Assembly (NCBI RefSeq): GCF_964213995.1
Contig: NW_027590159.1
Span: 248,001 to 312,000 of the forward strand
Reading direction: 5' to 3'
DNA length: 64,000 nt
From: Mustelus asterias
Lineage: Eukaryota
Each line of letters starts with the position of its first letter. The stretch's first letter is position 1. Under the pieces are notes generated by a model. That model was given only the letters and a program-made list of their open reading frames with translations. It made no database searches and was not told the DNA's origin. The position numbers were made by a program, and so were the translations under genes. Positions 1-29,703 of the stretch are shown piece after piece.

Positions 1-505
1 GATCTGTTAGTTATACGTGATCCTTCTTTATTCGGTGTGTGAAACATTCTGGCGCTTAAATCTCTTTCATCGACCGGAGGCCCAGCAGTTCCGCACTGAT
101 GCCCGATTTCCTCATCTGTCTGAGTGTTTTTCCCTCTTTCTTTATTCGGAAGAACAATTTTTAAAATAACCTTCAAAGCAATGTGTGCCATTTCCTCTCG
201 TTCAGTTACACTTTCACTTGTGTCTGTCTTTATGAGCCCGCACTACTGGTAGACATGTTTCAGATGGTGATTAAATCTGTTAGTCTGCACCGGTAAACGC
301 ATTAAATTTTGTTGCGGACTGAACGAGTTGAGAATATATGTACAAACAAGACAAACATTTATTTCCTGCCATTGCATCCTAAATAACAGCATTTCTGATT
401 TTCCTAAAGGCAATTGAATTAATGTAAGGTCCGATTTTCCGAAAAGCATTTGAGTTGATGTAACATCGAGATTCACATAATGTTGAGCAATGATGGTGGC
501 ACAGT

Positions 506-806
506 GGGACGGCACAGTGGCACATTGGTTAGCACTGCGGCCTCACAGACACCTGGGTTCGATTCACGGCTTGGGTCACTGTCTGTGTTGAGTTTGTACG
601 TTCTCCCCGTGTTCCCCGGGTCCTGGTTTCCTCCCACAGTCCAAAAATGTGCAGGTGAGGAGGATAGGCCATGCTAAATTGCCCCTTAGTGCCAGGGGAG
701 CGAGGTAGGTAAATACATGGGGTCATGGGGATAGGGCCTGGGTGGGATTGTTTTCGGTGCAGTCTCGATGGGCCGAATGGCCTCCCTCTTCACTGCATGA
801 TTCTAG
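506..806 (+). mobile_element. HE1-type tRNA-derived SINE (elasmobranch V-SINE)
   Basis: A box tggcacattggttagc and B box ggttcgattc, central gtttcctcccacagtccaaa domain, CR1/HER1-like tail gatgggccgaatggcctcc. Confidence 0.9.
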
Positions 807-857
807 GAAGTTAAACCATGCAGGCTTCGCACTCCCTGAACAAGAATGGTCCAAAAG

Positions 858-930
858 TGCTTCTGCCGGGTTTTGATCCGGGAATCATTCACGTGTGAGG
901 CGAACGTGATAACCATGACATTACATGAAC
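858..930 (-). pseudogene. tRNA-Val(CAC) degenerate copy
   Basis: 73-nt match to the reverse complement of vertebrate tRNA-Val (cgtgtgaggcgaacgtgataacca), with many stem-breaking substitutions. Confidence 0.85.
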
Positions 931-2112
931 AGCTGACCGCATATTTTAGTTAATTGGTCTGTCTGCAATGTCCAACTGCGCTGCGCTGCTGCAGGTTCCA
1001 ATGGTTAAACTGAGAGCCCATGTCACTGAATTCAAGAAGAAAACCGGTATTTTCAACCTGATTTCTCAACTTATCTTGAACATCAAAATTTAAAAGCTTT
1101 CGTTTGGCAAATATCTAAGTGAGCACTGATTCTGCCCATTCATTAATGCATCATTTTCATCTTCCTTCGAATAATCTCAACAAATTGTAATCAGTAATAA
1201 AAGTAAATTACTGCGGATGCTGGAATCGGAAACCAAAAGAGAAAATGCTGGAAAATCTCGCAATGTCTGACAGCTCCTGTTAGGAGAGAAAAGGGCTGAG
1301 CTTTCGAGTCCAGATGACATTTTGTGAAAGCTCATTGAGCAATTGTACTCAGTATTTGTTTTATTATTCAATATTTAGGATCAATGCATTATTTAACACA
1401 TATGTCTTCATTATGAATTCAATATCTCTGGAATTGAATATCACTGAATTGCAAACAGAACTGACTAACAGAACGAATCGAATCACCGGGTAATACAGAT
1501 CGCAGTTTTGAGATTGATCATAACCAGCTTTTAAACAAAGTCAACTATGTTTAAATGGAAGTGAGTCAAGAACTACCTGTTCGTGACACTTGAGCCTTTT
1601 TTATTATGGGCGTGAAATATTCAGGCGCATAAATTCCGGCCATTTATAGGAAAGTCCAGTAGATCTGCACTGAGTCCCGATTCCTTCATCAGTCTGAGTG
1701 GTTTTTTTTCTATTTCTTTGTTGTGAAGAACGATTTAAAAAAAGAATCGTCTGGGAAATGAACGCCATTTCTGATAGATCACTTACAATATCACTTGTGT
1801 CAGTCTTCTGGAGCAGACACTACTATTAGATATGTTTCAGACGGTGATTAACCATGTTAGTCTGCACCCATATACCCATTCAATTCTGTTGTAGACTGAA
1901 CGAGATGCGAATATGTGCTCGGTGTCAAAATCGAAACGTTACTTTCCTGTCAGTGCATCAAAAAAAATCAGCATTTCTTATTTTACAGAAAACATTGGAG
2001 GCCGATGTCAGAGCAACAATAATATGTCTGTAATATTGAGGTTCAGATAATGTTGAGGAACGAACTGAAATCATGCAATTTTCCTTCACTCGACATGAGA
2101 AAGCTTAATGAA

Positions 2113-2184
2113 TGTTGCTGTTCCGTTTCGAACCAGGATCTTTCCGCATGTCAGACGAACATAATAACCACTACACTGGAGAAC
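2113..2184 (-). pseudogene. tRNA-Val degenerate copy (anticodon position reads GAC)
   Basis: gtttcgaacc B box and ataaccactacact A-box region at the same position in the unit; stems disrupted. Confidence 0.8.
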
Positions 2185-2400
2185 AGCTGGACGCAAGCTG
2201 CAGCAAATCGGCCTGTCCGCAATGTTCAACTGCTGCAGGTTCCAATGGTTAGACTGAGAGCCCATGCTTCTTAATTCAGGAAGATAACCGTTGCTTTCAA
2301 TCTGATTGCTCAACTTATCTTGAACATCAAAATTTAAAAGTGTTCTTCTGGCAAATATTTAAGGGAACAATGATTTCCAGCCTTTCATTAATGCATCATT

Positions 2401-3215
2401 CTATAGCTATACGATAAATGGCAGAACCATAAAGGGCCTTTCATTAATGCATCATTAATGCATCATTCATAGCTATACGATAAATGGCAGAACCATAAAG
2501 GGTGTAGATACGCAGAGGGACCTGGGTGTGCAAGTCCACAGATACTTGAAGGTGACGTCACAGGAGGAGAAGGTGGTGAAGAAGGCATATGGCATGCTTG
2601 CCTTTATAGGACGGGGCATAGAGTATAAAAGTTGGGGTCTGATGTTGCAGATGTATAGAACGTTGGTTCGGCCGCATTTGGAATACTGCGTCCAGTTCTG
2701 GTCGCCACACTACCAGAAGGACGTGGAGGCTTTGGAGAGAGTACAGAGGAGGTTTGCCAGGATGTTGCCTGGTATGGAGGGGCTTAGTTATGAGGAGAGT
2801 TTGGGTAAACTGGGGCTGTTCTCCCTGGAAAGACAGAGGATGAAGGGACACTTAATAGAGGTGTATACAATTATGAAAGGCATAGATAGGGTGAACGGTG
2901 GGAATCTTGTCCCCAGGTCGGTGGTGACGTTCACGAGGGGTCATGGGTTCAAGGTGAAGGGGGGGGGAGGTTTAACACAGATATCAGAAGGACATATTTT
3001 ACACAGAGGGTGATGGGGGCCTGTAATGCGTTGCCAGGCATGGTGGTGGAGGCGGACACACTGGGAACGTTTAAGACTTATCTAGATAGCCACATGAACG
3101 GAGTGGGAATGGAGGGATACAAAAGAGTGGTCTAGTTTCGACCAGGGAGCGGCACGGGCTTGGAGGGCCGAAGGGCCTGTTCCTGTGCTGTATTGTTATT
3201 TGTTCTTTGTTCTTT
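2401..3215 (+). mobile_element. 5'-truncated CR1/HER1 LINE (ORF2 C-terminus and 3' tail)
   Basis: ORF 2528-3013 contains LVRPHLEYCVQFWSPH...ERVQRRF; 3' end gggccgaagggcctgtt followed by (tgttctt)n. Confidence 0.95.
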
Positions 3216-4108
3216 ATTCTCATCTTCCTTCGAATAATCTCAACCAATTGTACTCAGCAATAAAAGCAAATTACTGCGGATACTGGAATCGGAAACCAAA
3301 CGAAAAAATGCTGGAAAATCTCACAACGTCTGACAGCACCTGTAAGAAGAGAAAGGAGCTGACGTTTCGAGTCCAGATGACACTTTAACAACGTTCATTG
3401 TACAATTGTACTCAGTATTTGTTTCAATATTTAGTCTCAATGCATTATTCAACACATATGTCTTCATTATCTCTGAAATTGAATATCATAGAATTGCAAA
3501 CATAAATGACCAACAGGAATCGAGTCACCGGGGAAGACAGATCACAATTATGAGATTGACCATAGCGAACTACATTTAAACAAGGTGAACTACATTTAAA
3601 TAGACGAGATTGAAGAATTATCTGTTATTGACACTTGAGTTTTTTTTCTTTTTGGGTGTGAAACATTCAGGCGCATAAATTCCGGCCATTTAAATGAAAG
3701 TTCAGTAGATCCGCACTGAGTCTCGATTTCCTCATTTGTCTGAATGTTTTTTTTTTCCTATTTCTTTGTTTTGAAGAACGATTAAAAAAAGATTCTTCTG
3801 GGAAATGTGCGCCATTTCCTATAGTTCACTTACCGTATCACTTGTGTCAGTCCCCTGGAGCACATACTACTATTCGAAAAGTTCCAGATGGCGATTAGCT
3901 ACGTTAATCTGCACCTATAAACTCTTTAAATTCTGTTGTAGACTGAACGTGATGCGAATATGCGCACAGTGTCAAAATCCAAAGGTTTCTTTCCTGTCAG
4001 TTCGTCAAAAAGCTATCAACATTCTTATTTTACAGAAATCATTTGAGACCGAGGTCAGAGCAAAGATCATACGGCTGCAACATCAAGATGCGGATATTGT
4101 TCAGCAAC

Positions 4109-4860
4109 GAAGATCTAATACAGATAGGAAATATACAGTAAATGGCAGAACCCTTAAGAGTATTGATAGGCAAAGGGATCTGGGTGTACAGGTATACAGG
4201 TCACTGAAAGTGGCAATGCAGGTGGAGAAGGTAGTCAAGAAGGCATACGGCATGCTTGCCTTTATCGGCCGGGGCATTGAGTTTAAAAATTGGCAAGTCA
4301 TGTTGCAACTTTATAGAACCTTAGTTAGGCCGCACTTGGAATATAATATTTAAATTTGGTCGCCACACTACCAGAAGGATGTGGAGGCTTTGGAGAGGGT
4401 AAAGAAAAGATTTACCAGGATGTTGCCTGGTATGGAGAGTATTTGCTACGAGGAGAGATTGGACAAACTTGGCTTGTTCTCACTGGAGCGACGGAGGTTG
4501 AGGGGAGACCTGATCGAAGTCTACAAGATTGTGAAAGGCATGGACAGAGTGGATAGTCACAAGCTTTTTCCCAGGGCGGAAGAATCAATTACTAGGGGAT
4601 ATCTGTTTAAGGTGCGTGGGGCAAGGTTTGAAGGAGATGCACGAGGCAGATTTTTTACGTAGAGACTAGTGGGTGCCTGGAGAGGTAGTGGAAGCTGATG
4701 CGGGAGTGACTTTTAAGGAGCGTCCTGACAAGTACATGAATAGAATGGGAAATGAGGGATACGACCCCCGGCAGGGTAGGGTGCTTTATTAAGTCGGGCA
4801 GCATGGTCGGTGCAGGCGTGGAGGGCTGGTTCATATGCTGTCATTTTCTTTGTCCTTTAT
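4109..4860 (+). mobile_element. 5'-truncated CR1/HER1 LINE
   Basis: QRDLGVQV...LVRPHLEY, then RLRGDLIEVYKI; premature stop near 4351. Confidence 0.95.
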
Positions 4861-4908
4861 ACTGAAATCATACAGATTTCCTCACCCTAAATTAGAAAGA
4901 TTAATGAA

Positions 4909-4981
4909 CGTTTCTGCCCGGTTTTGAACTGGGAACCTTTCGCGTGTGAGGTGAATGTGATAACCAATACACTACAGAAAC
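4909..4981 (-). pseudogene. tRNA-Val(CAC), moderately degenerate
   Basis: cgtttctgcccggttttgaactgggaacctttcgcgtgtgaggtgaatgtgataaccaatacactacagaaac; A box and T arm mutated. Confidence 0.88.
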
Positions 4982-5813
4982 AGGTGACAGCAATGACAGC
5001 AAATCCGCCTCTCTGCAATGTTCAACTGCGCTGTGTTGCTGCAGTTTCAAATGGTTCGACTGAGAGGCCATGTCCCTTGTTTCAGGAAGATAACCGTTAC
5101 TGTCAATATGATTGCTCAACTTATCTTGAACTTCAAAATTTTAAAGCGATCGCCTGTCAAATATCAAAGCAACAATGAATTCCACTCATTCATTAATGCA
5201 TTATTTTCATCTTCCTTCGAATAATCTCAACCAATTGTGCTCATTAATGAAAGCAAATTACTGCAGATGATGGAATCTGAAACCAAAGGAGAAAATGCTG
5301 GAAAATCTCACAAGGTCTGGCAGCATCTGTAAGGAGAGAAAAGAGCTGACGTTTGGAATCCAGATGACATTTTGCCAAAGCTCACTTTACAATTGTACTC
5401 AGTATTTGTTTCAATATTTAACCTCAATACATTGTGTCACACATATGACATCATTCTGAAGAGAATATCTCTGAAATTGAATCACGAGTATCACTTGTGT
5501 CTGTCTTGTTGAGCACACACTCCTATTAGACATGTTTCAGATGGTGATTCGCTATTTTAGTTTGCACCTAAAAACCCATTAAATTCTGTTGTCCACTGAA
5601 CAAGGTGATACTATGTGCACGTTGTCAAAATAGAGACGTTTCTTTCCTGTCAGTGCGTCAAAAAGAAATCAGCATTTCTTATTCACAGAAACCATTTGAG
5701 TTTGAGGTCAGAGCAAAGATAATATTGTTGTAATATCGAGATTCGGATAATGTTCAGCAACGAACTGAAATCATACAGGATTTCCCTCATCTTCCATGAG
5801 AAAGCTTAACGAA

Positions 5814-5886
5814 TGCTGCTTCCCTGTTTCGGACCGGGGACTTTTTGTGTTTTAGGCGAACGGGATAACCACTCCACTGCAGAAAC
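5814..5886 (-). pseudogene. tRNA-Val degenerate copy
   Basis: gtttcggaccggggac...aggcgaacgggataaccact; anticodon decayed. Confidence 0.8.
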
Positions 5887-7414
5887 AAGTGATAGGATTG
5901 GGGCCTCAATGGCCCTGACTACAATGTTTAACTCCACTTTGTTGCTGCAGGTTTGAATGGTATGATTGAGGGCCCATGTCACTTAATACAAGAGCACATC
6001 CCTGACTTTCAACCTGATATCTCAACTTATCTTGTTCTTCAAAATTAAAAAGAGTTCATCCGGCAAATGTCTAAGAAAGCACTGATTTGTGCTCAATCAT
6101 CAATGCTTCATTCTTATCTTCCTGCGAATAATTTCAACCAATTATACTCAGTATTTGTTTCATGGAATCATAGAATCAGTGCAGAAAAGGTATTCGATCG
6201 AACGAATCAGGAGCGACGCCAGAATATCATAACCAGGCCATTTCTCTCGTTTCCCCCGCAACGCTACTCCTTTCCCATGGCTATTCAATCTAACCAAGGG
6301 GCAATTTAGCATGCCCAATCCACCTTGGATCTTCATTCAATTTTTAATATCAATACAGTTATTTAATATATATGTCCAAATTCTGAATTTAATATCTCTT
6401 GAATATACAATCGGTCTGACTGCATTGTTCAACTCCGCTCTATTGCTGCAGATTCGAATGGTTGGAATGGGAGTCCATATACCTTAGTGCAAGAAGATAA
6501 CCGTTACTTTCAACGTGATGTCTCAACTTGTCTCGAATTTCAAAATTTAAAAGCGTTCATCGGACAAATATGTAAGGGAGCAATGATTTCTGCTCAATCA
6601 TTGATGCATCATTCTTATATACGATCGATTAACTTCAAACAGTTATATCCAGTATTTGTTCGGTAATCAACATTTAGTATCAATCCATTTATTTAACACA
6701 GATGTCTTCATTGCGGATTGAATATGTCTGAAATATACAGCATTGAATTGCAAACATTATTGACCAACAAAATAAATCGAGTCACGGGTAATACACATCC
6801 CATGGTGCTTTTTTGAGTTTGACCATGATCAGCTTTTAAAACCAAATCAAATATATTTAAAGGGAAGAGATTCAAGAATGATCTGTTAGTTATACTTGAT
6901 CCCTCTATATTCTGTGTGACAAACATTCTGGCGCCTAAATCTCGTTCATCTATAGGAGATCCAGAAGGTCCGCTTTGATTCTCGATTTCCTCTTCTGTCT
7001 GAGAGGTTTTCCCTATTTCGTTATTCTGAAGAACAATTTTAAAAAGATGCTTCGGGAAAATGTGCTCCATTTCCTCTCGTTCAGTTACAGTATCACTTGT
7101 ATCTGTATTTTTGAGCACACAATACTATTAGACATGTTTCAGTTGGTGATGAATTATGTTAGTCTGCATTTATAAACCTATTAAATTCTGGTGTGGACTG
7201 AAAATATTGCTAATATGTGCACGGTTTTAAAATAGGAACATCTATTTCCTCTCATCGCGTCATGAAAATACAAGATTTCTGATTTTGCTGAAAGCTTTTG
7301 AGGCAGAGGTCAGCGCAAATATAACATGGCTGTAACATCGAGTTTTGGATAATGTTCAGCTACAATCTGAAATTATATAGACTTCCCTCAACCTTAATGA
7401 ACAAATTTCATTAA

Positions 7415-7487
7415 TGCTTCTGCTCGATTTCGAACGTGGGCCCTTGCGTGCGTGAGGCAAATGCAATCAGCACTACACCACGGAAAC
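7415..7487 (-). pseudogene. tRNA-Val(CAC) degenerate copy
   Basis: tttcgaac...cgtgaggcaaatg...cactacaccacggaaac; last copy of block 1. Confidence 0.78.
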
Positions 7488-8181
7488 TGTTGGCTGCTCC
7501 GTAGCCCAATGGGGCTGAGTTGATATGTTGCAATATTCGTTGGGAATGCTGTAGACACATTAATCTAAGAATGATTGAAAATGGTGAACAATGTCACAGA
7601 ACGATGAGAGGCTCATCAATCCATCAGATCTTTGCGAATTATTTTATGAGGAGCTAAATAATTAAGATGTCGTTGCGGGATTGATGGGTCGAAGGGCCTG
7701 TTTCTGTCCTGAACTGTTCTTTGTTCCAATTTCAATTTCCTCCTCTAATTCCATGAAGTTGATGTTTCTCCCTTTTAAGTCATTGAAAAATCCCAATTTG
7801 AAGAAGGAGTTTCTGCGGAATCCATGCTTTAACAGAATTTGCTTTAACAACCTTTCCCTTACCCAATGGCAGGAAGTATTGGATTTACCCTCCCGATATA
7901 GTTTTCAATGTAAACATATATTTATTTATGCAATTGATTTCATATCGATTTTACAAAACGAATTTAAATCTGATGTAGCATCTCCACATTATTTCTGAAT
8001 TATATCCAATATAACTACATTTACTCCACAACCTTCCACAGAGTGTGGAATATAACCGACGAGAATGAATCACCTACACCTGAAGCAGTCTTCTTGTTTT
8101 GTCCTCCTGTGTCCTGAACATCCAATCCGAGAACCTCGAGATTCGATGGAGAATCTCTCTTATTCACACGGACTTCACATA

Positions 8182-8364
8182 GGGCAACACAGTGGCACGG
8201 TGGTTAGCACTGCTGTTTCACAACGCTCGGGATCCGGGTTCAATTGAAATTCCTCCTTAGTGTACACGAACAGGCGGCGGAATGTGGCGACGAGAGCATT
8301 TTCACAGTAACTTGAAGTATTAATTGCAGTATTAATGTAAGCCTGGTTGTGACACTAGTAAATA
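8182..8364 (+). mobile_element. SINE with HE1-like tRNA head and an alternative 3' tail, internally deleted
   Basis: Head gtggcacggtggttagcactgctg...gggttcaatt; tail cacagtaactt...gtaagcct...gtgacacta is shared with the copy at 45937-46233. Confidence 0.75.
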
Positions 8365-8704
8365 TGTTTTGCACACGGACACATCCAGAATATGTTTGGC
8401 GGTAAAAATAAACACATCCATTATTGCTTATTCTGCAAAAGGGTCCACGTCGATTTGTCAATCAATGATCAGCATTGATGAGAAATAGATTTCTGGCTGC
8501 TCCTGTTGTTAAAACGTCGTGTTCCATCGCAATGAGTATCTAACACGATATTGCCGCACTTACACCACACCAGGGAATTCCAGTTCAGGAAGTTTACTCT
8601 GGAGCAAGCGCGCTTTTTAGGTTGTCAATGAGTTCATGTCCCTTTTGTGTGTCAATGGCTGTGCCAATCTGCTTTGTTATCTTTCTTAGTGATTGTCCGT
8701 GTGT

Positions 8705-9427: not shown

Positions 9428-9714
9428 TTGAGTCGATCGGTTTGGGAATCTATCACTTAGTTTGCTTGTCTCTGTGTTGATTCTGTGCAGTATCCGAGGT
9501 TTCCATTGAACACGGAGTTGGAGTTATTCATGCATTATCATGGTTAGCAACGCAAACTAATAGGTGTCATAAATCTGCAGAATAATTTTGTGCTGTATTG
9601 TTCTTTGTTGTTCTTTGTAATTCTGGATTTATAACGAGGGACGTTAGAATTGATGTCACTGTCTGGGCATATATCTATATGGTTATATATCCTTATTCGT
9701 GTTGGTCTTTCCAC

Positions 9715-9955: not shown

Positions 9956-9976
9956 TATAAGTGTCAGTCTTTTCAG

Positions 9977-10261
9977 GTTGCCGTGTGTGTACCTGTTTCC
10001 AATATGCGGCTGTCCACGGGAGAGCACTCTCTGATCACTTATGAAAGATCACAATCGCTTTCTAAAGGAAGCGTCTGTTCTGGTATCGCCAGTATACACA
10101 CCGAGCTCCTCATTCACTGCTCAGAGCCGCGAATGTACCGAAACGGCTCAAGGTTTTTTACACTGCAGCGGGAATCTCAACCTGAAACAAAGCACTTTTC
10201 ACTTGCCCATGAAAGATTTGAAGGTGACAGACAGCGCCGTGTATTACTGTGCACTGAGAGC
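9977..10261 (+). pseudogene. T-cell receptor alpha/delta-type variable (V) gene segment, frameshifted pseudogene
   Basis: Acceptor ttttcag ends at 9976. GEHSLITY (Cys23-equivalent reads Tyr) is in frame 2, LFWYRQYTHRAP (TGG at 10081) in frame 1, and STFHLPMKDLKVTDSAVYYCALR in frame 3. An RSS follows directly. Confidence 0.9.
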
Positions 10262-10300
10262 CACAGTGAATGAGGCTCCCGCGGGCCTCATACAAAATCT
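10262..10300 (+). promoter_or_regulatory. RAG recombination signal sequence, 23-bp spacer
   Basis: Perfect heptamer CACAGTG (10262-10268), 23-nt spacer (10269-10291), nonamer ACAAAATCT (10292-10300; 7/9 to ACAAAAACC). Confidence 0.93.
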
Positions 10301-12705: not shown

Positions 12706-12944
12706 GTTGCATTTCTCCTGACTTCCAGACTATTCCAGTTGTTACATTTCCTCCCTCCTGAGATTCAGTCGTTTCAAATTCCCACATTTTTCACCTTTTC
12801 CTGTTGTAATGAAAGGCCATGGACGTAAAGGATGAGCTTTGTTTCCCTGTCCACAAATTCTGCCTGAATTCCTAAGTTTCTGCAGCATCTTCCACCTTCG
12901 CTGCAGTTATCTGATCGGCTTTGAATGGGCAAGAGAGCATCTTT

Positions 12945-14424: not shown

Positions 14425-14450
14425 TTTCTTTCAATCAGTGGCTGCTTAGA

Positions 14451-17030: not shown

Positions 17031-17103
17031 GGGCCAGTGGCGCAATGGATAACGCGTCTGAATACGGATCAGAAGATTCCAGATTCGACTCCTCACTGGC
17101 TCG
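17031..17103 (+). pseudogene. tRNA-Arg(ACG), probable pseudogene
   Basis: GGGCCAGTGGCGCAATGGATAACGCGTCTGAAT-ACG-GATCAGAAGATTCCAGATTCGACTCCTCACTGGCTCG; 4 changes from consensus, including C32A and a broken T stem/B box. Confidence 0.88.
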
Positions 17104-18011
17104 CTGTGATAGTTTAACAATAGTTCAAAAATTCCATATTCGTGTGGATGAAAAATGTGTTTTCACAAATTTTGGACCAATTCAGAGAAATGTTGACCAA
17201 ATGCAGTCAGCTTCTCTGAAGAAATTTATCTTAGCTAATAATTTTTCAAAACAATGTTGACAATTTTAAGAAAGAAATTACTGATAAACTTCAATTAATT
17301 TTTTAAAAAAAATAGTTTCTTTAAATGACGAATTCTCGTTAAAGTATTTGGGAAAAATATGTTAGCAAGTTTAAGCTACCTTTTAAAAAGTTGGAAATTT
17401 CTCGAAAAATACGTGGAAACATTACATTTTTCAAAATGGTGAAAACATTTTCTAAAAGATTGATGAACTCTGCGGAAGAATTTCTTTTAAACATGTTTAA
17501 TTTTAAGAAGCAAAATACACAGAAATGTTTTTTAAAAGTTGACAAATTTCAGTTAAATCAGATGGAGGAATTTCTTTGGAGTAAGTTTAGTTTTTAAAAG
17601 TTCAAATTAGCCAGAATTTTCTGGTTTGTGATGCTCGGATTGTTGTCTAATGGAGCGAAGGAGATTGAGGAGCGACTTAATCGAGGTGGACTAGATTAGG
17701 GCAAGTTTAGAGGGGGAGGGACAAGTTTTAAGATATTGGGCAAGGCGGGGGCGAAGAAGATTTGGAAGCAACATTTTTTCCACAGCGAGTGCTCAGGACC
17801 TGGAACTCATTGCCTCCGAGAGTGTTGGATGCGGTCAATTTAAATAATAGAAATTCTGAGGTGGACATGGACCTCCTGAGAAAGGAGATGCGTCTCCAGG
17901 AACATTCTAAGTCAGATAGATGGATCTCCTCGGTAACATTGAATCTGAAGATCAACCTGTAGCAAGACACCCCTCCCCGGCCCCGCCCCCACCAACTGTT
18001 GAGATGTTTGA

Positions 18012-18160: not shown

Positions 18161-18371
18161 TTTAAATTTTGTTGGAGTCTGAACGAGATGCGAATATGGG
18201 CTCGGTGTCAAAATCGAACTGTCCTGTCAGTGCGTCAAAACAAAGGGTTTCTTATTTCAGAAAAAGCATTTGAGGGTGATGCCAGATCAATGATAACATG
18301 CCTTTAACATCGGGGTTCGACTAACGTTGAACAACCAACTGAAATCAAGCAATTTTCCCTTACCCGATATG

Positions 18372-19724: not shown

Positions 19725-20961
19725 TCTGAGAAAGCTTAATGAACGTTTCTGCCTTGGTTCGATCTGGGGATTTTTGGAGTGTTATGCGAACCTGATAACC
19801 ACTGCACGAAAGCAACAGCTTAAAAGGCACTGGAGCAAATCTGCCTGTCTGCAATGTTCAACTACGCTGTGTTGCTGCAGTTTCCGATGGTTCGACTGAG
19901 AGCCCGTATGACTTAATTGACGAAGATAACCGTTACTTTCAATCTGATTGTACGACTTATCCAGAAGATCAAAAAATAAAAGAGTTCGTCTCGCAAATAT
20001 CTAAGGGAGCAATAATTTCTGCCCCTTCATTAATGCATCATTCTCAGCTTTCATCGAATAGTCTCAATCAATTGTACTAAGTAATTAGAGCAAATTATTG
20101 CGGATGAGAAAAGACTAAATGCTCCAAAATCTCCCAATGTCTGACAGCACCTGTAACGAGTGAAACGGGTGGACGCTTCGAGTCCAGATGACACTTTATC
20201 AAAGCTCATTGTACAATTGTACTCAGTATTTGTTTCACTATTTAATATCAATGCATTATTTAACACATATGTCTTCATTATTAATTGAATATCTCTGAAA
20301 TTGAACATCACTGAATTGCAAACGTAACTGACCAACAGAACGAATCGAATCACCGGCTAATACACTTCGCAATTTTGGGATTGATTATCGTCAGCATTTA
20401 CATAAAGTCAACGACATTTAAACGGAGAAGAGTCCAGAATTATCTGTTCGCGACACTTGAGCCTTTTTTATTATGGACGTGAAACATTCAGGCGCATAAA
20501 TTCCGGCCCTTTACATGAAAGTCCAGTAGATCCGCACTGAGTCTCGATTCCCTCATCGGTCTGAGGGGCGTGAAACATTCAGGCACCTAAATATTTTTTT
20601 TAAAGAATCTTCTGTGAAATGTGCGCCATTTCATCTAGTTCCCTTACAGTATCAGTTGTAACTTTCTTTTTGAGCACACACTACTGTCAGATATTTCAGA
20701 TGGCGATTGACCATATTAGTCTGCACCTATAAATCCATAAGGTTCTGTTTTAGACTGAGCGGGATGGGAATAAGTGCTCAGTGTCAAAATCGAACTTTCC
20801 TGTCACTGCGTCAAAAAATACGTTTCTTACTTCACAGAAAGCATTTGAGGGTGATGTCAGCGCAATCAAAACATGCCTTTAAAATCGAGGCTCGGATAAT
20901 GATGAGCAATGAACTTAAATCAAGCAATTTTCCCTTACCCGACATGGTAAAGCTTAATGGA

Positions 20962-21034
20962 TGTTCCTGCCCGGTTTCGAACCGGGGATTTTCCGCGTGT
21001 TAGGTGAACGTGATAACCACTACACTACAGAAAC
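20962..21034 (-). tRNA. tRNA-Val(AAC), best-preserved array copy (possibly a pseudogene)
   Basis: Minus strand GTTTCTGTAGTGTAGTGGTTATCACGTTCACCT-AAC-ACGCGGAAAATCCCCGGTTCGAAACCGGGCAGGAACA. A and B boxes are intact and the acceptor stem pairs; one A-C mismatch in the anticodon stem. Confidence 0.8.
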
Positions 21035-22181
21035 AGCTTGAAGGGCATTTCAGAAACTCTGCCTGGCTGCAATGTTGAATTACGCTGTGTTGCTGCAGGT
21101 TCCGATGGTGAGACTGAGAGCCCATGGCACGGAATTCAGGAAGATAACCGTTACTTTCAATCTGATTGCACGACGTATCCCGAACATCAAAAGTTAAAAG
21201 CGTTCGTCTCGCAAATATCTAAGGGAGCAATGATTTCTGCCCATTCATTAATGCATCATTTTTATCTTTCTTCGAATAATCTCAATCAATTGTACTCAGT
21301 AAAGAAGCAAATGATTGCGGATTCTGGAATCGTAAACGAAAAGGGAAAATTCTGGCAAGTCTCACAAGGACTGACAGCATCTATAAGGAGTGAAAAGAGC
21401 TGACGTTTCGAGTCGAGCTGACATTTTGTCAAAGCTCATCAATTGTACGCAATATTTGTTTCAATATTTAGTACCAATGCATTATTTGACACATATGTCT
21501 TCATTTCTGGAATTGAACATCACTGAATTGCAAACATAACTGACCAACAAAATGAATCGAGTCCCGAGTAATGCAGATCGCAATTTTAAGATTGAAAATA
21601 GTCAGCTTTTTAAAAAAAAAGTCAACTACATTTAAATGGAGGAGAATCAAGAATTATCTGTTCGTGACACTTGAGCCTTTTTATTATGGGTGTGAAACAT
21701 TCAGGTGCATAAATTCCGGCCCTTTTCAGGAAAGTCCAGTCGATCCGCACTGAGTCTCGATTCCCTTATCTGTCTGAGTGGCTTTTCCTGTTTCTCAGTG
21801 ATGAAAAACGATTTTAAAAAAAGATCCTTCTGTGAAATGTGCGCCATTTCCTCTAGTTCACTTACAGTATCACTTGTATCTGTCTTTTTGAGCACACGCT
21901 ACTATCAGATATTTCAGATGATGATTAATCATATTAGTCTGCACCTCTAAACCCATTCAATTCTGTTGTAGTCTGAACGAGATGCGAATGCGTGCTCGGT
22001 GTCAAAATCGAATATTCCTGTCAGTGCGTCAAAAAAAAATCGTTTCTTATTTCACAGAAAGCATTTGAGGGTGATGTCAGAGCAATGATAACATGCCTTT
22101 AACATCGAGGTTCGGATAACGTTCAGCATCAAACTGAAATCAAGCAGTATTCCCTTACCCGACATGAGAAAGCTTAATGAA

Positions 22182-22253
22182 TGTTTATCTCCGGTCTCGA
22201 ATCGGGGAACTTTCCACGTGTTAGGCGAACGCGGCAACAACTACGACAGAAAC
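22182..22253 (-). pseudogene. tRNA-Val(AAC) degenerate copy
   Basis: ccggtctcgaatcggggaactttccacgtgttaggcgaacg; D arm decayed. Confidence 0.8.
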
Positions 22254-23399
22254 AGCTTGAAGCACGATAGAGCAAATCTGCCTGTCTGCAATGTTCAACT
22301 ACGCTGTGTTGCTCCAGGTTTCGATGGTGAGACTGAGAACCCATGTCACTGAATTCAGGAAGATAACCGTTACTTTCAATCTGATTGTACGACTTATGCC
22401 GAACATCAACATTTGAAATCGTTCGTTTCGCAAATATCTAAGGGAGCAATGATTTCTTCCCATTCATTAATGCATCATTTTCATCTTTTTCGAATAATCT
22501 CAATCAATTGTACTCAGTAATAAAAGCAAATTACTGCGGATGAGAAAAGAGAAAATGCTGCAAAATCTCACAGTGTCTGACACCACCTGTAAGGAGTGAA
22601 ACGGGCGTGCGTTTCGAGTCCAGATGGCACTTCATCAAAGCTCATTGTACAATTGTACTCAGTATTTGTTTCACTATTTAGTATCAAGGCCTTATATAAC
22701 ACGTATGTCTTCATTATGAATTGAATATCTCTGAAATTGAACATCACTGAATTGCAAACATAACTGCCCAACAGAACGAATCGAATCACCGGGTAATACA
22801 GATCGCAATTTTGAGATTGAATATCGTCAGCTTTTAAAGAAAGCCAACTGCATTTAAATGGAGAAGAATCAAGAATTATCTGTTCGTGACACTTGAGCCT
22901 TTTTTATTCTGGGCGTGAAACATTCATGCGCATAAATTCCGGCCCTTTACAAGAAAATCCTTTAGATTCGCCCTGAGTCTCGATTCCCTTATCTGTCTGA
23001 GTGGTTTTTCCTGTTTCTTCGTGATGAAAAATGATTTTTAAAAAAAGATTCTTCTGTGAAATGTGCGCCATTTCCTCTCGTTCACTTACAGTATCACTTG
23101 TATCTGTCTCTTTGAGCACACACTACGATCAGATATTTCAGACGGTGATCAACCATATTAGTCTGCACCTATAAACCCATTAAATTCGGGTGTCGACTGA
23201 ACGAGATGCGAATATGTGCTCAGTGTCAAAACCGAACTTTCCTGTCAGTGCGTCAAAGAAAACCCGTTTCTTATTTCACAGAAAGCATTTGAGGGTGCTG
23301 TCAGAGCAATGATAACCTGCCTTTAACATGGAGGTCCGGATAATGTTGCGCAACAAACTGAAATCAATGAACTTTCCTGACATGAGAAAGCGTAATGCA

Positions 23400-23472
23400 T
23401 GTTTCCGCTTGGCTTCGAACCGGGGATCTTTCGCGTGTTCGGTGAACGTGATCATCACTACGTTACAGAAAC
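23400..23472 (-). pseudogene. tRNA-Val(AAC) degenerate copy
   Basis: tgtttccgcttggcttcgaaccggggatctttcgcgtgttcggtgaacgtgatcatcactac. Confidence 0.82.
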
Positions 23473-24638
23473 CGCTGGAAACGCGGTTGAGCAAATCTGC
23501 CTGTCTGCAATGTTCAACTACGCTGTGTTGCTGCAGGTTCCGATGGTGAGACTGAGAGCCCATGTCCCTGAATTCAGGAAGATAACCGTTACTTTCAATC
23601 TGATTGTACGACTTATCCCGAACATCAAAATTTAAAATCGTTCGTCTCGCAAATATCTAAGGGAGCAATGATTTCTGCCCATTCATTGATGCATCATTTT
23701 CATCTTTCTTCGAATAATCTCAATCAATTGTACTCAGTAATAAAAACAAATTGCACGGGGATGAGAAAAGCGAAAATGCTGCAAAATCTCACAATATCTG
23801 ACAGCACCTGTAAGGAGTGAAAAGGGCGGACGTTTCGAGTCCAGATGACACTTTATTGAAGCTCATTGTACAATTGTACTCAGTTGTTTCAATATTTAGT
23901 ATCAAGGCATTATTTAACACATATGTCTTCATTATGAATTGAATATCTCTGAAATTGAACATCACTGAATTGCAAACATAACTGCCCAACAGAACGAATG
24001 GAATCACCGGGAAATACAGATCACAATTTTGAGATTTACTATCGTCAGCTTTTAAACAAAGTCAACTACATGTAAATGGAGGAGAATCAAGAATTATCTG
24101 ATCGTGACACTTGAACCTTTTTTATTATGGGCGTGAAACATTCAGGCACAGAAATTCCGGCCATTTATAGGAAATTCCAGTAGATCCGCACTGAGTCTCG
24201 CAGCCTATAGCAAATCGGCCTGTCTGCAATGTTGAACTGCGCTGTTGTGCTGCACGTTCAAATGGTTAGACTGAGAGCCTCGTCTCCTCCCCCGCCCCCC
24301 CTCCACCCTCGCAACCTCCCTCCCCCATCCACCCCGCAACAATGTGTCTTGTTTGAGGAAGATAACCGCTGTTTTCAATCTGATTGCTCAACTTATCTTG
24401 AACTTCAAAACTTAGAAGCGTTAGTCTGGCAAATATCTGAGGGAGCAATGATTTCTGCTCATTCATTAATGCATCATTCTCATCTTCCTTCGAATAAGCT
24501 GAACCAATTGTACTCAGTAATAAAAACAATTTACCGTGGATGCTGGAATCTGAAACCAACAGAGAAAGTGCTGGAAAATCTCACAAGGTCTGGAAGCATC
24601 TGTAAGGAGAAAAAAGGGCTGACGTTTCGTGTTCAGAT

Positions 24639-27600
24639 AAGACCATAAGACATAGGAGCGGAAGTAAGGCCATTCGGCCCATCGAGTCCACTCCACCATT
24701 CAATCATGGTTGATTTCAACTCCATTTACCCGCTCTCTCCCCATAGCCCTTAATTCCTCGAGAAATCAAGAATTTATCAATTTCTGTCTTGAAGACGCTC
24801 AACGTCTCGGCCTCCACAGCCCTCTGTGGCAATGAATTCCACAGACCCACCACTCTCTGGCTGAAGAAATTTCTCCTCATCTCTGTTCTAAAGTGACTCC
24901 CTTTTATTCTAAGGCTGTGCCCCCGCGTCCTAGTCTCCCCTGTTAATGGAAACAACTTCCCTACGTCCATCCTATCTAAGCCGTTCATTATCTTGTAAGT
25001 TTCTATCAGATCTCCCCTCAACCTCCTAAACTCCAATGAATATAATCCCACGATCCTCAGACGTTCATCGTATGTCAGGCCTACCATTCCTGGGATCATC
25101 CGTGTGAATCTCCGCTGGACCCGCTCCAGTGCCAGTATGTCCTTCCTGAGGTGTGGGGCCCAAAATTGCTCACAGTACTCCAAATGGGGCCTAACCAGTG
25201 CTTTATAAAGCCTCAGAAGTACATCCCTGCTTTTGTATTCCAAGCCTCTTGAGATAAATGACAACATTACATTTGCTTTCTTAATTACGGACTCAACCTG
25301 CAAGTTTACCTTTAGAGAATCCTGGACTAGGACTCCCAAGTCCCTTTGCACTTTAGCATTATGAATTTTGTCACCGTTTAGAAAATAGTCCATGCCTCTA
25401 TTCTTTTTTCCAAAGTGTACGACCTCGCACTTGCCCACGTTGAATTTCATCAGCCACTTCTTGGACCACTCTCCTAAACTGTCTAAATCTTTCTGCAGCC
25501 TCCCCACCTCCTCAATACTACCTGCCCCTCCACCTATCTTTGTATCATCGGCAAACTTGGCCAGAATGCTCCCAGTCCCGTCATCTAGATCGTTAATATA
25601 TAAAGAGAACAGCTGTGGCCCCAACACTGAACCCTGCGGGACACCACTTGTCACCGGTTGCCATTCTGAGAAAGAACCTTTTATCCCAACTCTCTGCCTT
25701 CTGTCTGACAGCCAATCGTCAATCCATGTTAGTACCTTGCCTCGAATACCATGGGCCCTTATTTTACTCAGCAGTCTCCCGTGAGGCACCTTGTCAAAGG
25801 CCTTTTGGAAGTCAAGATAGATAACATCCATTGGCTCTCCTTGGTCTAACCTATTTGTTATCTCTTCAAAGAACTCTAACAGGTTTGTCAGGCACGACCT
25901 CCCCTTACTAAATCCATGCTGACTTGTCTTAATCCGACCCTGCACTTCCAAGAATTTAGAAATCTCATCCTTAACGATGGATTCTAGAATTTTGCCAACA
26001 ACTGAGGTTAGGCTAATTGGCCTATAATTTTCCATCTTTTTTCTTGTTCCCTTCTTGAACAGTGGGGTTACAACAGCGATTTTCCAATCCTCTGGGACTT
26101 TCCCTGACTCCAGTGACTTTTGAAAGATCATAACTAACGCCTCCACTATTTCTTCAGCTATCTCCTTTAGAACTCTAGGATGTAGCCCATCTGGGCCCGG
26201 AGATTTATCAATTTTCAGACCTTTTAGTTTCTCTAGCACTTTCTCCTTTGTGATGGCAACCATATTCAACTCTGCCCCCTGACTTTCCTGAATTGTTGGG
26301 ATATTACTCATGTCTTCTACTGTGAAGACTGACGCAAAGTACTTGTTAAGTTCCTCAGCTATTTCCTTGTCTCCCATCACTAGATTACCAGCGTCATTTT
26401 GGAGCGGCCCAATGTCTACTTTTGCCTCCCGTTTGTTTTTAATGTATTTAAAGAAACTTTTACTATCATTCCTAATGTTACTGGCTAGCCTACCTTCATA
26501 TTTGATCCTCTCCTTCCTTATTTCTCTCTTTGTTATCCTCTGTTTGTTTTTATAGCCTTCCCAATCTTCTGACTTCCCACTACTCTTTGCCACATTATAG
26601 GCTCTCTCTTTTGCCTTGATGCATTCCCTGACTTCCTTTGTCAGCCATGGCTGCCTAATCCCCCCTCTGATAACCTTTCTTTTGTTTGGGATGAACCTCT
26701 GCACTGTGTCCTCAATTACTCCCAGAAACTCCTGCCATTGCTGTTCTACTGTCTTTCCCATTAGGCTCTGCTTCCAGTCGATTTTTGTCAGTTCCTCCCT
26801 CATGCGCCTGTAATTACCTTTATTTAACTGTAGAACCTTCACATCTGATTCTGCCTTCCTTCTTTCAAATTGCAGACTGAATTCTACCATATTATGATCA
26901 CTGCTTCCTAAGTGTTCCCTTACTTTAAGATCTTTTATCACGTCTGGCTCATTACATAACACTAAGTCCAGAATAGCCTGTTCCCTCGTGGGCTCCATCA
27001 CAAGCTGTTCCAAAAAGCCATCCTGTAAACATTCAATGAATTCCCTTTCTTTGGGTCCACTGGCAACATTATTTACCCAGTCCACCTGCATATTGAAATC
27101 CCCCATGATCACTGTGACCTTGCCTTTCTGACATGCCCTTTCTATTTCGTGGTGCATTTTGTGCCCCTGGTCCTGACCACTGTCAGGAGGCCTGTACATA
27201 ACTCCCATTATGGTTTTTTTGCCTTTGTGGTTCCTCAACTCTACCCACACAGACTCCACATCGTCTGACCCTATGTCGTTTAGTGCTATTGATTTAATTT
27301 CATTTCTAATTAACAAGGCAACCCCGCCCCCTCTACCCACCCCTCTGTCTTTTCGATAGGTTGTGAATCCCTGGATGTTTAACTGCCAGTCCTGAACCCC
27401 CTGCAACCACGTCTCTGTGATGCCTACCACATCATACCTGCCAGTCACAATCTGGGCCACAAGCTCATCTATCTTGTTCCGGACACTGCGGGCATTTAAA
27501 TATAGCACCTTTAATTCCCTATTGACCGTCCCTTTTTGTTTTCGTAGTGTGGTGGACCTTGGTCTACTGAGCCTTTCCAGACACTGTGTCATATTTTGTG

Positions 27601-27700
27601 AGATGGGGACTATCGTAACCTCTCCTGAGTGCTGTCTTTTCGTGATTTTTTGTAATCCTAAGCAGCTACGCTTCCCACTGATTCCTTCACCTCTTGGTGA
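24639..27700 (-). mobile_element. CR1 LINE truncated just upstream of ORF2
   Basis: 3' tail ataagaccataagacatagg at the left end; host tandem-unit sequence on both sides; no ORF1. Confidence 0.96.
24716..27592 (-). CDS. CR1 ORF2p: APE endonuclease plus reverse transcriptase, uninterrupted (~958 aa from the first element-internal ATG)
   Basis: YLNARS, GITETW, MGDFN and SDH endonuclease motifs; NYRPISLTS, QGS and FADD RT motifs. The extra N-terminus of the 1057-aa track ORF is read-through from the tandem unit. Confidence 0.92.
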   Translation of the reverse strand: MTQCLERLSRPRSTTLRKQKGTVNRELKVLYLNARSVRNKIDELVAQIVTGRYDVVGITETWLQGVQDWQLNIQGFTTYRKDRGVGRGGGVALLIRNEIKSIALNDIGSDDVESVWVELRNHKGKKTIMGVMYRPPDSGQDQGHKMHHEIERACQKGKVTVIMGDFNMQVDWVNNVASGPKEREFIECLQDGFLEQLVMEPTREQAILDLVLCNEPDVIKDLKVREHLGSSDHNMVEFSLQFERRKAESDVKVLQLNKGNYRRMREELTKIDWKQSLMGKTVEQQWQEFLGVIEDTVQRFIPNKRKVIRGGIRQPWLTKEVRECIKAKERAYNVAKSSGKSEDWEGYKNKQRITKREIRKERIKYEGRLASNIRNDSKSFFKYIKNKREAKVDIGPLQNDAGNLVMGDKEIAEELNKYFASVFTVEDMSNIPTIQESQGAELNMVAITKEKVLEKLKGLKIDKSPGPDGLHPRVLKEIAEEIVEALVMIFQKSLESGKVPEDWKIAVVTPLFKKGTRKKMENYRPISLTSVVGKILESIVKDEISKFLEVQGRIKTSQHGFSKGRSCLTNLLEFFEEITNRLDQGEPMDVIYLDFQKAFDKVPHGRLLSKIRAHGIRGKVLTWIDDWLSDRRQRVGIKGSFSEWQPVTSGVPQGSVLGPQLFSLYINDLDDGTGSILAKFADDTKIGGGAGSIEEVGRLQKDLDSLGEWSKKWLMKFNVGKCEVVHFGKKNRGMDYFLNGDKIHNAKVQRDLGVLVQDSLKVNLQVESVIKKANVMLSFISRGLEYKSRDVLLRLYKALVRPHLEYCEQFWAPHLRKDILALERVQRRFTRMIPGMVGLTYDERLRIVGLYSLEFRRLRGDLIETYKIMNGLDRMDVGKLFPLTGETRTRGHSLRIKGSHFRTEMRRNFFSQRVVGLWNSLPQRAVEAETLSVFKTEIDKFLISRGIKGYGERAGKWS

Positions 27701-28986
27701 AGCATTCGTGAGACTCATTTTACAATTGTACTCAGTATTTGTTTCAATATTTAGTATCAATGCATTATTTAACATATATGGCTTCATTATGAATTGAATA
27801 TCTCTGAAATTGAATTTCACTGAATTGCAAACATAAGGACCAACAGAAGGAAGCGAGTCACCGGGTAAAGGAGATCGCAATTTTGACATTGATCATCGTC
27901 TGCTGTTAAACAAAATCAACTCCATTTAAATGAAAGAGATTGAAAAGACATCTGTTAGTTGCACTTAAGCCTTTTAATTATGGGCGTGAAACATTCAGGC
28001 GCATAAATGTTGGCCATCTTTAGGAAAGTCCAATCGATCCGCATTGAGTTTCGATTTCCTCATCTGGCTGAGTGCTGTTTCCTATTTCCTTGTTATGAAG
28101 AACGATTTCCAAAAAAAAAACATGTTGTAGGAAATGTGCGCCTTTTCCTCTAATTCGCTTACACTACCACTTGTGTCTGTATTTTTGAGCACACACTGCA
28201 ATTAGACATGTTTCAGATGGTGATTAACTCTGTTCGTCTGCACCTTTAAACCCATTATATTCTGTTGTAGACTGAAAGAGATGCTAATGTGTGCACACTG
28301 TCAAAATCGAAAATTTCCTGTCAGTGCGTCAAAGGAATCAGCATTTCTTATTTTACAGAAAACATTTGAGGCAGAGTTCAGAGCAAAGATAATATGGCTG
28401 TAACATCGAGATTTGGTTGATGTTCAGCAACGATCTGAAATCATACAGATTTCCCTCACCCTACATGGGAAAGCTGATGAATGTTCTGCCCGGTTCTGAA
28501 GCGGTGATCTTTCACGTGTTGGGCCAATGTGATAACCACAGAAACAAGAGAATGCGCCACGCTGCCAATTGGCCTGACTACAATGTTGAACTACATCGTG
28601 TTGCTGCAGGTTCTCATGGTCACATTGAGGGTCCATGTCAATTAATAGAAGAACAAATCCGTTATTTTCAACCTGATATATCAACTTATCTTGAACCTCA
28701 AAATAAATATATTCGATATATTTCAGATGGTGATTAACTACGTCAGTCTGCACGTCCAAACCCATTAAATTAATTTGTGGACTGCACGAGTTGCGAATAT
28801 GTGTATACACAATGGAGTTCTTTATTCCCTGCGTCCTCAAAGACAGCATTTCTGACTTTCCGAAATTCATTTGAGGCCGAGATCGAAGCCAATATAACAT
28901 GACCGTGACATCTGATTCGCATGAGGTTGAGCTATGAACTCACATCATGCAAACTTTGCTCATGCTTAATGGCACCGATCCAACAG

Positions 28987-29059
28987 TGTTTCTGCCTGGT
29001 TTCGAACCGGGGACTTTTCGCGTGTGAGGCGAATGTGAGAACAACTACACTTCAGGAAC
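28987..29059 (-). pseudogene. tRNA-Val(CAC), moderately degenerate
   Basis: tgtttctgcctggtttcgaaccggggacttttcgcgtgtgaggcgaatgtgagaacaactacacttcaggaac. Deleted copies also lie at 28482-28545 and ~29393-29447. Confidence 0.85.
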
Positions 29060-29703
29060 AGCTGACAATGCCCACGTGCAGTTTCACTTGTATCTGTCCT
29101 TTTGAGCACACACTGCCATTAGACATGTTTCAGATGGCGATTAACTACGTTAGTCTGCACCTATTAACCCATTAAAATCTGTTGTCGACTGAACGAAATG
29201 CTGATGTGCGCATGCTGTCAAAATAGAAACATTTCTTTCCTGTCAGTGCGCCAAAATATTCAGCATTTATTTTACAGGAAGCATTTGAGGCCGACGTCAA
29301 GCAAAGATAATATGAATCGAGATTCGGATAATGTTCAGCAACAAACTGAAATCATTCAGATTTCTCTCACCCGACATGAAAAACCTTAATATATTCTTCT
29401 GCCCGGTTTCGGACCGGGGTCCTTTACAAGCACTAAACTACAGAAACAAATGACAGCATATCGTCCCCAATCGGCCTGACTACAATGCTCAACTCCACTC
29501 TGTTGCTGCAGGTTCGCATGGTTAGATTGACGACCCATGCCACTTAATACATGAACACACTCGTTACTTTCAACCTGATGTGTCAACTTATCTTGTAATT
29601 CCAAATTAAAAAGCGTTCCTCCAGCAAATGCCTCAGGGAACTCAATGAGTTAAAGCTCAATTGTTTCAGTTCAGAATTCAGACGATGTTGAGCAATTCCG
29701 GCC

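Follow-up and report, generated by a model that had tools for sequence, protein, structure and literature searches.

Schistosome Sm-alpha is grouped with the tandem repeats of the non-LTR retrozyme type. In non-LTR retrozymes, newt satellite 2 included, tandem units each carry a type I hammerhead-like motif derived from a Penelope-like element (PLE) (PMC7229834, 10.64898/2026.07.22.740005). Their unit length is given as 150-450 bp in the first source and as 51-972 bp in the wider survey of the second. The minimal hammerheads of metazoan PLE pLTRs are of type I, with a helix I of 4-5 bp, an unpaired base between 9 and 10.1, a G10.1-C11.1 pair and a palindromic 15.2-16.2, helix III being absent; a U3-A8 variant is exemplified in Schistosoma mansoni, and most copies are solo remnants of truncated elements (Cervera and De la Pena 2014, PMC4209133). 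Elasmobranch genomes contain expanded tRNA loci, many of them clustered (10.1101/2025.06.08.657570).

The window analysed here (64,000 nt, positions 248,001 to 312,000 of contig NW_027590159.1 of Mustelus asterias; Table 1) shares with the retrozymes tandem units bearing a type I hammerhead-like motif of PLE origin, and with the elasmobranch genomes many clustered tRNA loci; the PLE family behind its motif has the listed features of the minimal PLE hammerheads. This family departs from them in that U3-A8 is the family majority in a vertebrate, helix II has 5 bp and one stub was multiplied inside a tRNA unit. In contrast to the retrozymes, the units are about 1,220 bp long and older than the motif, consecutive complete motifs were not found in the loci scored, and amplification outlasted motif breakage. 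With respect to the elasmobranch tRNA loci, the unit structure and the embedded retroelement stubs are described here, and a literature search covering few subscription papers found no tRNA array carrying a PLE hammerhead. We consider it highly probable (about 90%) that a Penelope-like element supplied the motif as its hammerhead end, likely in a single insertion near a tRNA-Val, and that the motif was then passively copied with the unit. Most likely it simply rides along as an ordinary passenger and does not make the unit a functioning tRNA-ribozyme device; its pairing with the tRNA is an accident of insertion.

Table 1. Features of the window (positions in the 64,000-nt stretch)
Feature	Position	Strand	Basis
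Older unit cluster, interrupted by LINE and SINE pieces	1..7490	-	unit comparison
Head-to-tail array part, about 3.7 units of ~1.22 kb	19731..24200	-	identity to 20941-22200 unit 81-85%
Broken unit cluster, LINE-split	24209..29651	-	unit comparison
Stub, motif 1294-1332, core broken; direct repeats 1182-1196 and 1340-1354	1197..1332	-	
Stub, motif 3357-3395, core and stem I broken	3260..3395	-	
Stub, motif 5344-5382, core broken; paralogues of its unit elsewhere near-intact	5247..5382	-	
Stub shortened by a 13-nt deletion; motif 20168-20206 disrupted in GAAA and stem I	20084..20206	-	
Penelope-like 3' end (pLTR with tail), 136 nt, 84% identity to dispersed-copy majority	21301..21436	-	alignment
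Best window copy of the U3-A8 minimal hammerhead; intact core and stem I, no G10.1-C11.1 pair, stem II pairs 3/5	21398..21436	-	motif scoring
3' copy of 15-bp direct repeat, likely a target-site duplication; + strand reads CAATTGTACTCAGTA	21287..21301	.	
15-bp direct repeat, 5' copy, 2 mismatches	21440..21454	.	
Stub shortened by a 13-nt deletion; motif 22604-22642 disrupted in core, cleavage triplet and stem I	22520..22642	-	
Stub shortened by a 13-nt deletion; motif 23825-23863 disrupted in core and stem I	23740..23863	-	
Stub 3' part, motif LINE-split, 5' part at about 27705-27722	24520..24638	-	
Empty site, single 15-mer joining both flanks, without stub	6139..6153	.	
Second empty site, more diverged (limits approximate)	6640..6660	.	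flank comparison
LINE 995-codon open frame (APE endonuclease and RT), inserted inside hammerhead motif	24719..27703	-	ORF and domains
tRNA-Val(CAC) copy, 51.0 bits	4909..4981	-	ARAGORN/Rfam
tRNA-Val(AAC) copy, 52.5 bits, mispaired stems, likely pseudogene	20962..21034	-	ARAGORN/Rfam
tRNA-Val-derived copy, 44.4 bits	28987..29059	-	Rfam

An earlier note on this DNA had described a ~1.22-kb macrosatellite over positions 1 to 29640. The unit and its minus-strand tRNA-Val are real, but the array is not continuous: head-to-tail units are confined to 19.73-24.20 kb and the rest consists of broken clusters, with a single 218-nt unit fragment between 7.5 and 19.7 kb (unit comparison within 1-29640). 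Identity among window units is about 68-87%, and a first look across the genome gave about 1,300 candidate units. The unit is too long for Tandem Repeats Finder, whose periods end at 500. Duplicates of whole blocks, nested LINEs included, are 96-100% identical, a pattern indicative of copying at the DNA level; the motif copy split by a LINE in the window is contiguous in paralogous blocks.

The minus-strand hammerhead-like motif described at 21397-21437 reads as claimed, and all its homologues could be placed, the one at 24619-24638 being a 3' half only. The proposed stem I, GAGCT/AGCTC, is kept in this best copy, but its fifth pair (the first G of GAGCT) derives from the junction, as the element starts at AGCT. 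Stem II is indeed partly decayed, position 10.1 is A instead of G, and the minimum-energy fold of the monomer is not a hammerhead. A descriptor search (U3-A8 or C3-G8 core, GAAACGUH, 4-bp stem I) gave one match in 1-29640 and none in 200 shuffles. An Rfam scan of the window, with E up to 10, returned no hammerhead family, a result that says little on the minimal variant. Chance resemblance is ruled out by these shuffles and by the dispersed copies: a 34-nt motif has 1,855 exact matches genome-wide, against 0 for the control.

The origin of the motif was traced to a parent element with an RT, a Cys linker and a GIY-YIG endonuclease, which bears out the suggested link to the minimal type I, U3-A8 hammerheads of Penelope-like elements: the motif lies at the 3' end of this element. 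The 136-nt piece that the motif opens was found in 20/20 loci picked by the endonuclease protein, and in 17 of them it follows the endonuclease on the same strand at a distance of 553-1103 nt. A 732-aa open frame (locus L085) matched RVT_1 at the curated cut-off (E 6e-7) and GIY-YIG weakly, below the Pfam cut-off (E 0.006); five short endonuclease fragments were uninformative in Pfam, longer frames being needed. The CX4CxxC linker visible in the frames fits the Neptune CX2-5CxxC between RT and endonuclease, which is common to Nematis. From its domains and linker, the parent appears to resemble EN+ PLEs of the Neptune/Nematis type (PMC8557442, PMC11167929); all that the array retains of it is the terminal 136 nt, without an ORF. 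Dispersed copies show 13-16-bp flanking repeats (L042, L049, L051, L054, L055), inverted 5'-truncated copies seen as fold-back self matches (L049-L052, L054, L055, L058, L061, L063, L066), and ends near 100 and 135 nt, matching an optional 30-40-bp tail. The 34-nt motif served to pick 30 dispersed copies; their majority sequence folds into helices I and II (-9.8 kcal/mol) and is a predicted ribozyme by the minimal-hammerhead criteria (3-8 pair core, GAAA, UH, G10.1-C11.1, palindromic 15.2-16.2). The intact motif was present in 4/23 dispersed copies; since these are mostly broken too, the intact fraction alone separates the dispersed from the array set weakly.

In the array, the motif takes up the first 39 nt of the 136-nt piece, and 15-bp direct repeats lie on both sides of 8/8 window stub copies. 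Units without the stub keep one copy of the 15-mer, and 65 such empty junctions were found genome-wide. In a tree built from flanks only, which is unrooted, has its empty/filled branch unstarred and was sampled mostly with filled queries, 26 empty and 132 filled rows were separated by one change (shuffled mean 24.4). This split had support of 89/87, and a single change was recovered in 88% of 200 bootstrap trees. That empty and filled units are one change apart suggests a single insertion followed by amplification. As the tree is unrooted, early precise loss between the direct repeats may be an alternative source of empty sites. Repeated targeting of the site, making the filled units several independent insertions, might be expected from the palindromic core of the target sequence and from the target preferences of some PLEs (PMC8557442), but the filled units form one side of the flank tree and have in common a 5' junction, a short filler and substitutions relative to the dispersed majority. 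The common junction largely refutes this explanation, which we reject as extremely improbable.

Present copies are decayed, as the earlier note had stated. None of the 7 scorable window copies, and none of 122 distinct array copies in a first sample, satisfied the complete ribozyme criteria; stem I was intact in 12 of the 122, and 97% of them carried the stem II U. A targeted search then recovered at least nine near-intact array-junction copies, so the 0/122 is valid for the first sample only. These copies, all from one unit lineage, satisfy all criteria with one U-U mismatch in stem II, and every one of them lacks both a tRNA of its own and an intact neighbour. None of the loci scored had two intact motifs side by side. 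In the arrays amplified last, the form that was multiplied has stem I broken, a variant with 235 exact matches, and young arrays are fixed for a 13-nt deletion within the stub.

The core was not conserved above its flanks. Among 100 distinct units, it had 2.53 changes per site versus 2.25 expected (P 0.72), in a test that rests on 15 core positions and on units that are not independent; all 39 nt had 2.41 versus 2.35 (P 0.59). Non-CpG core sites changed slightly less than flanks (1.82 versus 1.75-2.43 by class). The remainder of the stub also changed slightly less than the other flanks (1.75 versus 2.09-2.43 per site, no significance attached) and filled units, to which the youngest arrays belong, outnumber empty ones in the sample (130 versus 24), as would be expected if the stub had been recruited for a non-catalytic upstream role, as promoter, insulator, nucleosome signal or recombination signal, that favoured filled units. 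We regard such co-option as very unlikely: sampling by filled queries and drift in one amplifying lineage account for the filled excess, and the deletion fixed in young arrays lies inside the supposed element.

The tRNA-Val copies were then compared with the motif. Positions 1-29640 hold 12 tRNA-Val-like copies but only 8 motif copies, all on the minus strand, and two sites are empty. Only 2/12 copies were called by ARAGORN and 3/12 by Rfam, at 44-52 bits; permissive ARAGORN with introns gave mostly noise. The best copies in young arrays reached 65.9 bits, and 20 loci of 10 kb yielded 128 tRNA calls, Val(AAC) nearly throughout. The tRNA itself showed no constraint relative to flanks (3.48 versus 2.40 changes per site), so the sampled units may be mostly dead. 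In the window array, the motif lies 368 nt upstream of the tRNA of its own unit, and the T-runs noted earlier are present, four to seven runs of at least four T separating each tRNA from the next motif; the first such runs lie 42 or about 140 nt downstream of the tRNA.

These data weigh on the proposal of a retrozyme-like unit, in which read-through RNA of the array would be cut by dimeric hammerheads into unit-length, tRNA-containing RNAs whose reverse transcription drives amplification. Such a unit would fit the co-orientation and tandem spacing of motif and tRNA, and PLE-pLTR-derived tandem retrozymes are reported in vertebrates, including one chondrichthyan (10.64898/2026.07.22.740005). 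The near-intact founder motif, of which at least nine copies survive, agrees with it too, but these copies lack their own tRNA and adjacent intact pairs are absent from all loci scored. The 1.2-kb units exceed the 150-450 bp (PMC7229834) or 51-972 bp (10.64898/2026.07.22.740005) of retrozymes, and block duplication with nested LINEs also speaks against it. The proposal is unsupported because the core changes at the flank rate, stem I is broken in the youngest arrays, some units have no motif and T-runs would stop Pol III; we hold it to be most improbable, and a purpose-built tRNA-ribozyme cassette is rejected. Similarly doubtful, at odds we would put very low, is that the founder ribozyme was still active, that read-through RNA cut into unit-length, tRNA-bearing RNAs seeded the first expansion, and that the nine near-intact survivors could cleave in trans with abundant Penelope transcripts. 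The fallback of the earlier note, a passive passenger, was right; core decay at the flank rate was also the first outcome that the note had named as refuting its retrozyme reading.

For this passenger, the following history is suggested. The source is a very abundant RT and GIY-YIG element whose 3' end bears a U3-A8 minimal hammerhead, and the array piece, lying between 15-bp direct repeats where stub-less units have one 15-mer, is that 3' end. One target-primed insertion probably placed it in an existing unit family, about 270-400 nt upstream of the tRNA-Val gene, the founder probably having the stem II G-to-U change already. The copies have decayed since, with no excess conservation of the core and with stem I broken in the youngest arrays. 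Amplification, tandem and segmental, would have proceeded at the DNA level by unequal exchange and block duplication; T-runs ahead of each following motif would halt Pol III, and in the array the motif presumably does nothing.

If true, the retrozyme reading would describe an unusual tRNA-carrying ribozyme element, and the evidence is against it. The locus instead illustrates cleanly that a satellite can acquire one dead ribozyme per unit without being a retrozyme, which should make pipelines cautious about calling retrozymes wherever tandem repeats hold hammerhead motifs. Filled and empty sites provide a marker for ordering the expansion of the large tRNA-Val array.

The tRNA array most probably carries the retroelement stub as a passive passenger, a reading that we place at about 0.9. 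The ~1.22-kb unit with its minus-strand tRNA-Val is repeated across 1-29.65 kb. The earlier note had described a macrosatellite over 1-29640; the unit and its tRNA-Val stand, but the array is not continuous, head-to-tail order being restricted to 19.73-24.20 kb, with LINE-broken clusters flanking both sides and a 12-kb stretch nearly devoid of unit sequence. The region holds 12 tRNA-Val-like copies (2 called by ARAGORN and 3 by Rfam, with scores of 44-52 bits) and eight copies of the hammerhead-like motif, the clearest of which reads exactly as first given. Since Arg, Leu, Leu and Cys tRNA genes or pseudogenes are also present, the window lies within a mixed tRNA cluster.

Further features are listed in the table. 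After the frame listed at 9962-10300 come CACAGTG, 23 nt of spacer and the nonamer-like ACAAAATCT; the arrangement resembles an orphan V segment of the T-cell receptor type, equipped with a 23-RSS. A Pfam search of the frame found no family. The hairpin near the end of the window may be a fold-back repeat.

Features of the window, with strand and basis where reported
Position	Strand	Feature	Basis or remark
9962-10300	+	Frame ending in V-segment-like YYC motif	Sequence reading
12944-14426	+	LINE RT fragment, 466-codon RVT_1 frame	96% identical to 56315-57793, opposite orientation
17031-17104		tRNA gene or pseudogene, Arg-ACG	
21397-21437	-	Hammerhead-like motif, clearest copy	Single descriptor match in 1-29640; 0 in 200 shuffles
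24.64-27.70 kb	-	LINE inside motif, 995-codon APE-RT open frame (24719-27703)	Frame analysis
35028-35736		Segment	70% alike with 39873-40586
35097-35182		tRNA gene or pseudogene, Leu-TAG	
39873-40586		Segment	70% alike with 35028-35736
39953-40034		tRNA gene or pseudogene, second Leu	
44331-44407		tRNA gene or pseudogene, Cys-GCA	
54846-54917	-	Histone 3' stem-loop match	Weak, 23.9 bits, under family threshold
56315-57793	-	LINE RT fragment	96% identical to 12944-14426, opposite orientation
61751-61860		Long hairpin	Weak microRNA-model match on both strands

The motif forms the start of a 136-nt stub (shortened to 123 nt where a deletion occurs), bordered by a 15-bp direct repeat in 8/8 window copies, with 3-7 nt of filler at its 5' side. 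A 34-nt motif from the stub gave 1,855 exact matches (control, 0) in the 3.68-Gb genome to which all whole-genome counts refer. Among 30 loci with this motif, 14 extend upstream into a longer common sequence and 16 begin at the motif, many of the latter adjoining an inverted partial copy. Their 3' ends fall near 100 or near 135 nt, in agreement with the optional tail of Penelope-like elements (PLEs) as outlined in the accessible part of PMC11167929, and 13-16-bp repeats flank several of these dispersed copies. The common upstream sequence leads into an endonuclease-like frame, for which a genome-wide search gave 25,466 first-look candidates. The stub was present in all 20 loci taken from this search (14 best non-self matches plus 6 picked for long frames); in 17 of them it lies 553-1103 nt downstream of the frame and in the same orientation (the other 3 were not placed). 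One locus has a 732-aa frame in which RVT_1, at the Pfam cut-off, is joined by a CX4CxxC linker and, C-terminally, by a weak match to GIY-YIG; this layout of RT, Cys-linker and GIY-YIG is that of Neptune/Nematis-type PLEs in the available text of PMC8557442. According to excerpts of PMC4209133, PLE pLTRs carry a minimal hammerhead with an additional base ahead of stem II, a G10.1-C11.1 pair and a U3-A8 variant, and the motif matches it in these three respects. The dispersed matches and the RT/endonuclease loci carrying the stub thus bear out the PLE link first drawn from the motif. The parent is an additional EN+ PLE, of a group already known together with its minimal hammerhead; a literature search found no description of a tRNA array paired with a PLE hammerhead.

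The proposed course is a single stub insertion into one unit, giving a founder that likely already had the stem II U, with amplification afterwards. Two sites in the window are empty, with one 15-mer and no insert, as are 65 junctions genome-wide (at most one mismatch). Among 171 distinct unit flanks, 130 were filled, 24 empty and 4 without a right flank, and 13 others, in which unrelated sequence follows an empty junction, were excluded from the tree. In the flank-only tree (158 rows, unrooted), 26 rows without the insert are split by one change from 132 with it (support 89/87), and 88% of 200 bootstrap trees likewise gave one change; after shuffling the mean was 24.4 changes, and none of 500 shuffles was as low as one. 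The empty side contains several long-branched lineages. As this tree has no root and its filled/empty branch carries no star, a single insertion is the simplest reading, not a proven one. The filled copies have a common junction, and 97% of 122 distinct copies carry a G-to-U change in stem II, which was likely already in the founder; of the 124 matches to the U form, the first 100 include only 27 on the large contigs C2-C68, against 1,855 for the G form genome-wide. Beside the one-change split and the common junction, repeated independent insertions of the stub into units appear hardly credible.

Present motif copies are decayed, as had already been noted. From 124 distinct array segments (226 copies), two with a 5' end replaced by a later insertion were dropped, and 0/122 of the rest satisfied all ribozyme criteria (stem I complete in 12, 5' core in 79, G10.1-C11.1 in 89). 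Most dispersed copies are dead too, since only 4/23 picked by protein satisfied these criteria; mean identity to the family majority was 95% for dispersed and 87% for array copies. A tree built from 100 distinct units gave 2.53 changes per site for the core, where flank sites matched for composition predict 2.25 (P 0.72). The comparison is rough because units are related and recombining; conservation of the core beyond its flanks, a point raised in the earlier note, did not appear. The whole motif likewise showed 2.41 versus 2.35 expected (P 0.59). Co-option of the stub for a non-catalytic role seems very improbable. In the youngest arrays, recognised by short branches in the flank tree, the 3' stem I strand is unpaired (235 exact matches to the broken-stem-I variant) and the tRNA reaches 65.9 bits, with 128 tRNA calls in 20 loci.

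The unit's own tRNA lies 368 nt downstream of the motif and that of the previous unit ~750 nt away. The motif could therefore be reached only by transcription that continues past the previous tRNA. Runs of four or more T terminate Pol III transcription, and those noticed at first reading are present between previous tRNA and motif: 4, 5 and 7 in the window's three tandem intervals, and 7-8 in seven intervals of younger arrays, the first 42 nt after the tRNA. It is correspondingly most unlikely that array RNA is cut by hammerheads into unit-length, tRNA-containing RNAs. Non-LTR retrozymes, in partial accounts, have consecutive complete motifs and short units, and the array differs from them in both features: in the array loci scored consecutive complete motifs were not found, and the unit measures ~1.22 kb. 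U3-A8 ribozymes have reported activity in vitro (part of PMC3088659), and minimal PLE motifs cleave weakly and as multimers only (part of PMC4209133).

Thirteen places with the best-preserved core, among the matches listed, comprised nine array-junction copies, two dispersed copies and two with a broken stem I. The nine satisfy all ribozyme criteria except for a U-U mismatch in stem II, and count against our own passenger reading. They share flank variants with the window copy at 5344-5382, which suggests that block duplication has multiplied a single unit. Their unit alignment ends ~28 nt before the tRNA in 9/9 cases, and their 6-kb loci contained no intact neighbouring motif. As these copies are without a tRNA and the best tRNAs have a broken motif, surviving ribozyme and good tRNA are not together.

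Of 40 scored candidates for the block around 1.2 kb, 26 are copies at 96-100% identity, the window's own among them. The non-motif part of the unit gave 1,329 first-look candidates, with scored matches all on C71 and smaller contigs. Because whole blocks were copied with nested insertions, amplification probably took place at the DNA level. The LINE inside the motif is likely a young insertion, as the motif is contiguous without it in three paralogous blocks (L092, L093, L131). Young tRNA-Val(AAC) arrays (L121-L135, on C71, C89, C91 and C138) have a 2.68-kb higher-order period, within which the first tRNA copy is followed ~176 nt further on by another that scores less well (36-41 bits); at L132:1587-6527, drifted anticodons on a Val body are called Asp(ATC), Asp(GTC) and Gly(CCC) by ARAGORN.

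On the same 100-unit tree the tRNA changed faster than its flanks (3.48 vs 2.40 changes per site; mismatch 0.071 vs 0.060), the tRNA plus ~70 nt on each side showing 3.2-3.9 and the rest of the unit 1.6-2.5. Possible causes of this excess are that the copies are pseudogenes, that units recombine near their ends, or that mutation is linked to transcription. Large clustered tRNA sets have been reported in elasmobranchs (available part of 10.1101/2025.06.08.657570), and the array behaves as a tandem cluster of tRNA genes and pseudogenes with a PLE stub on board.
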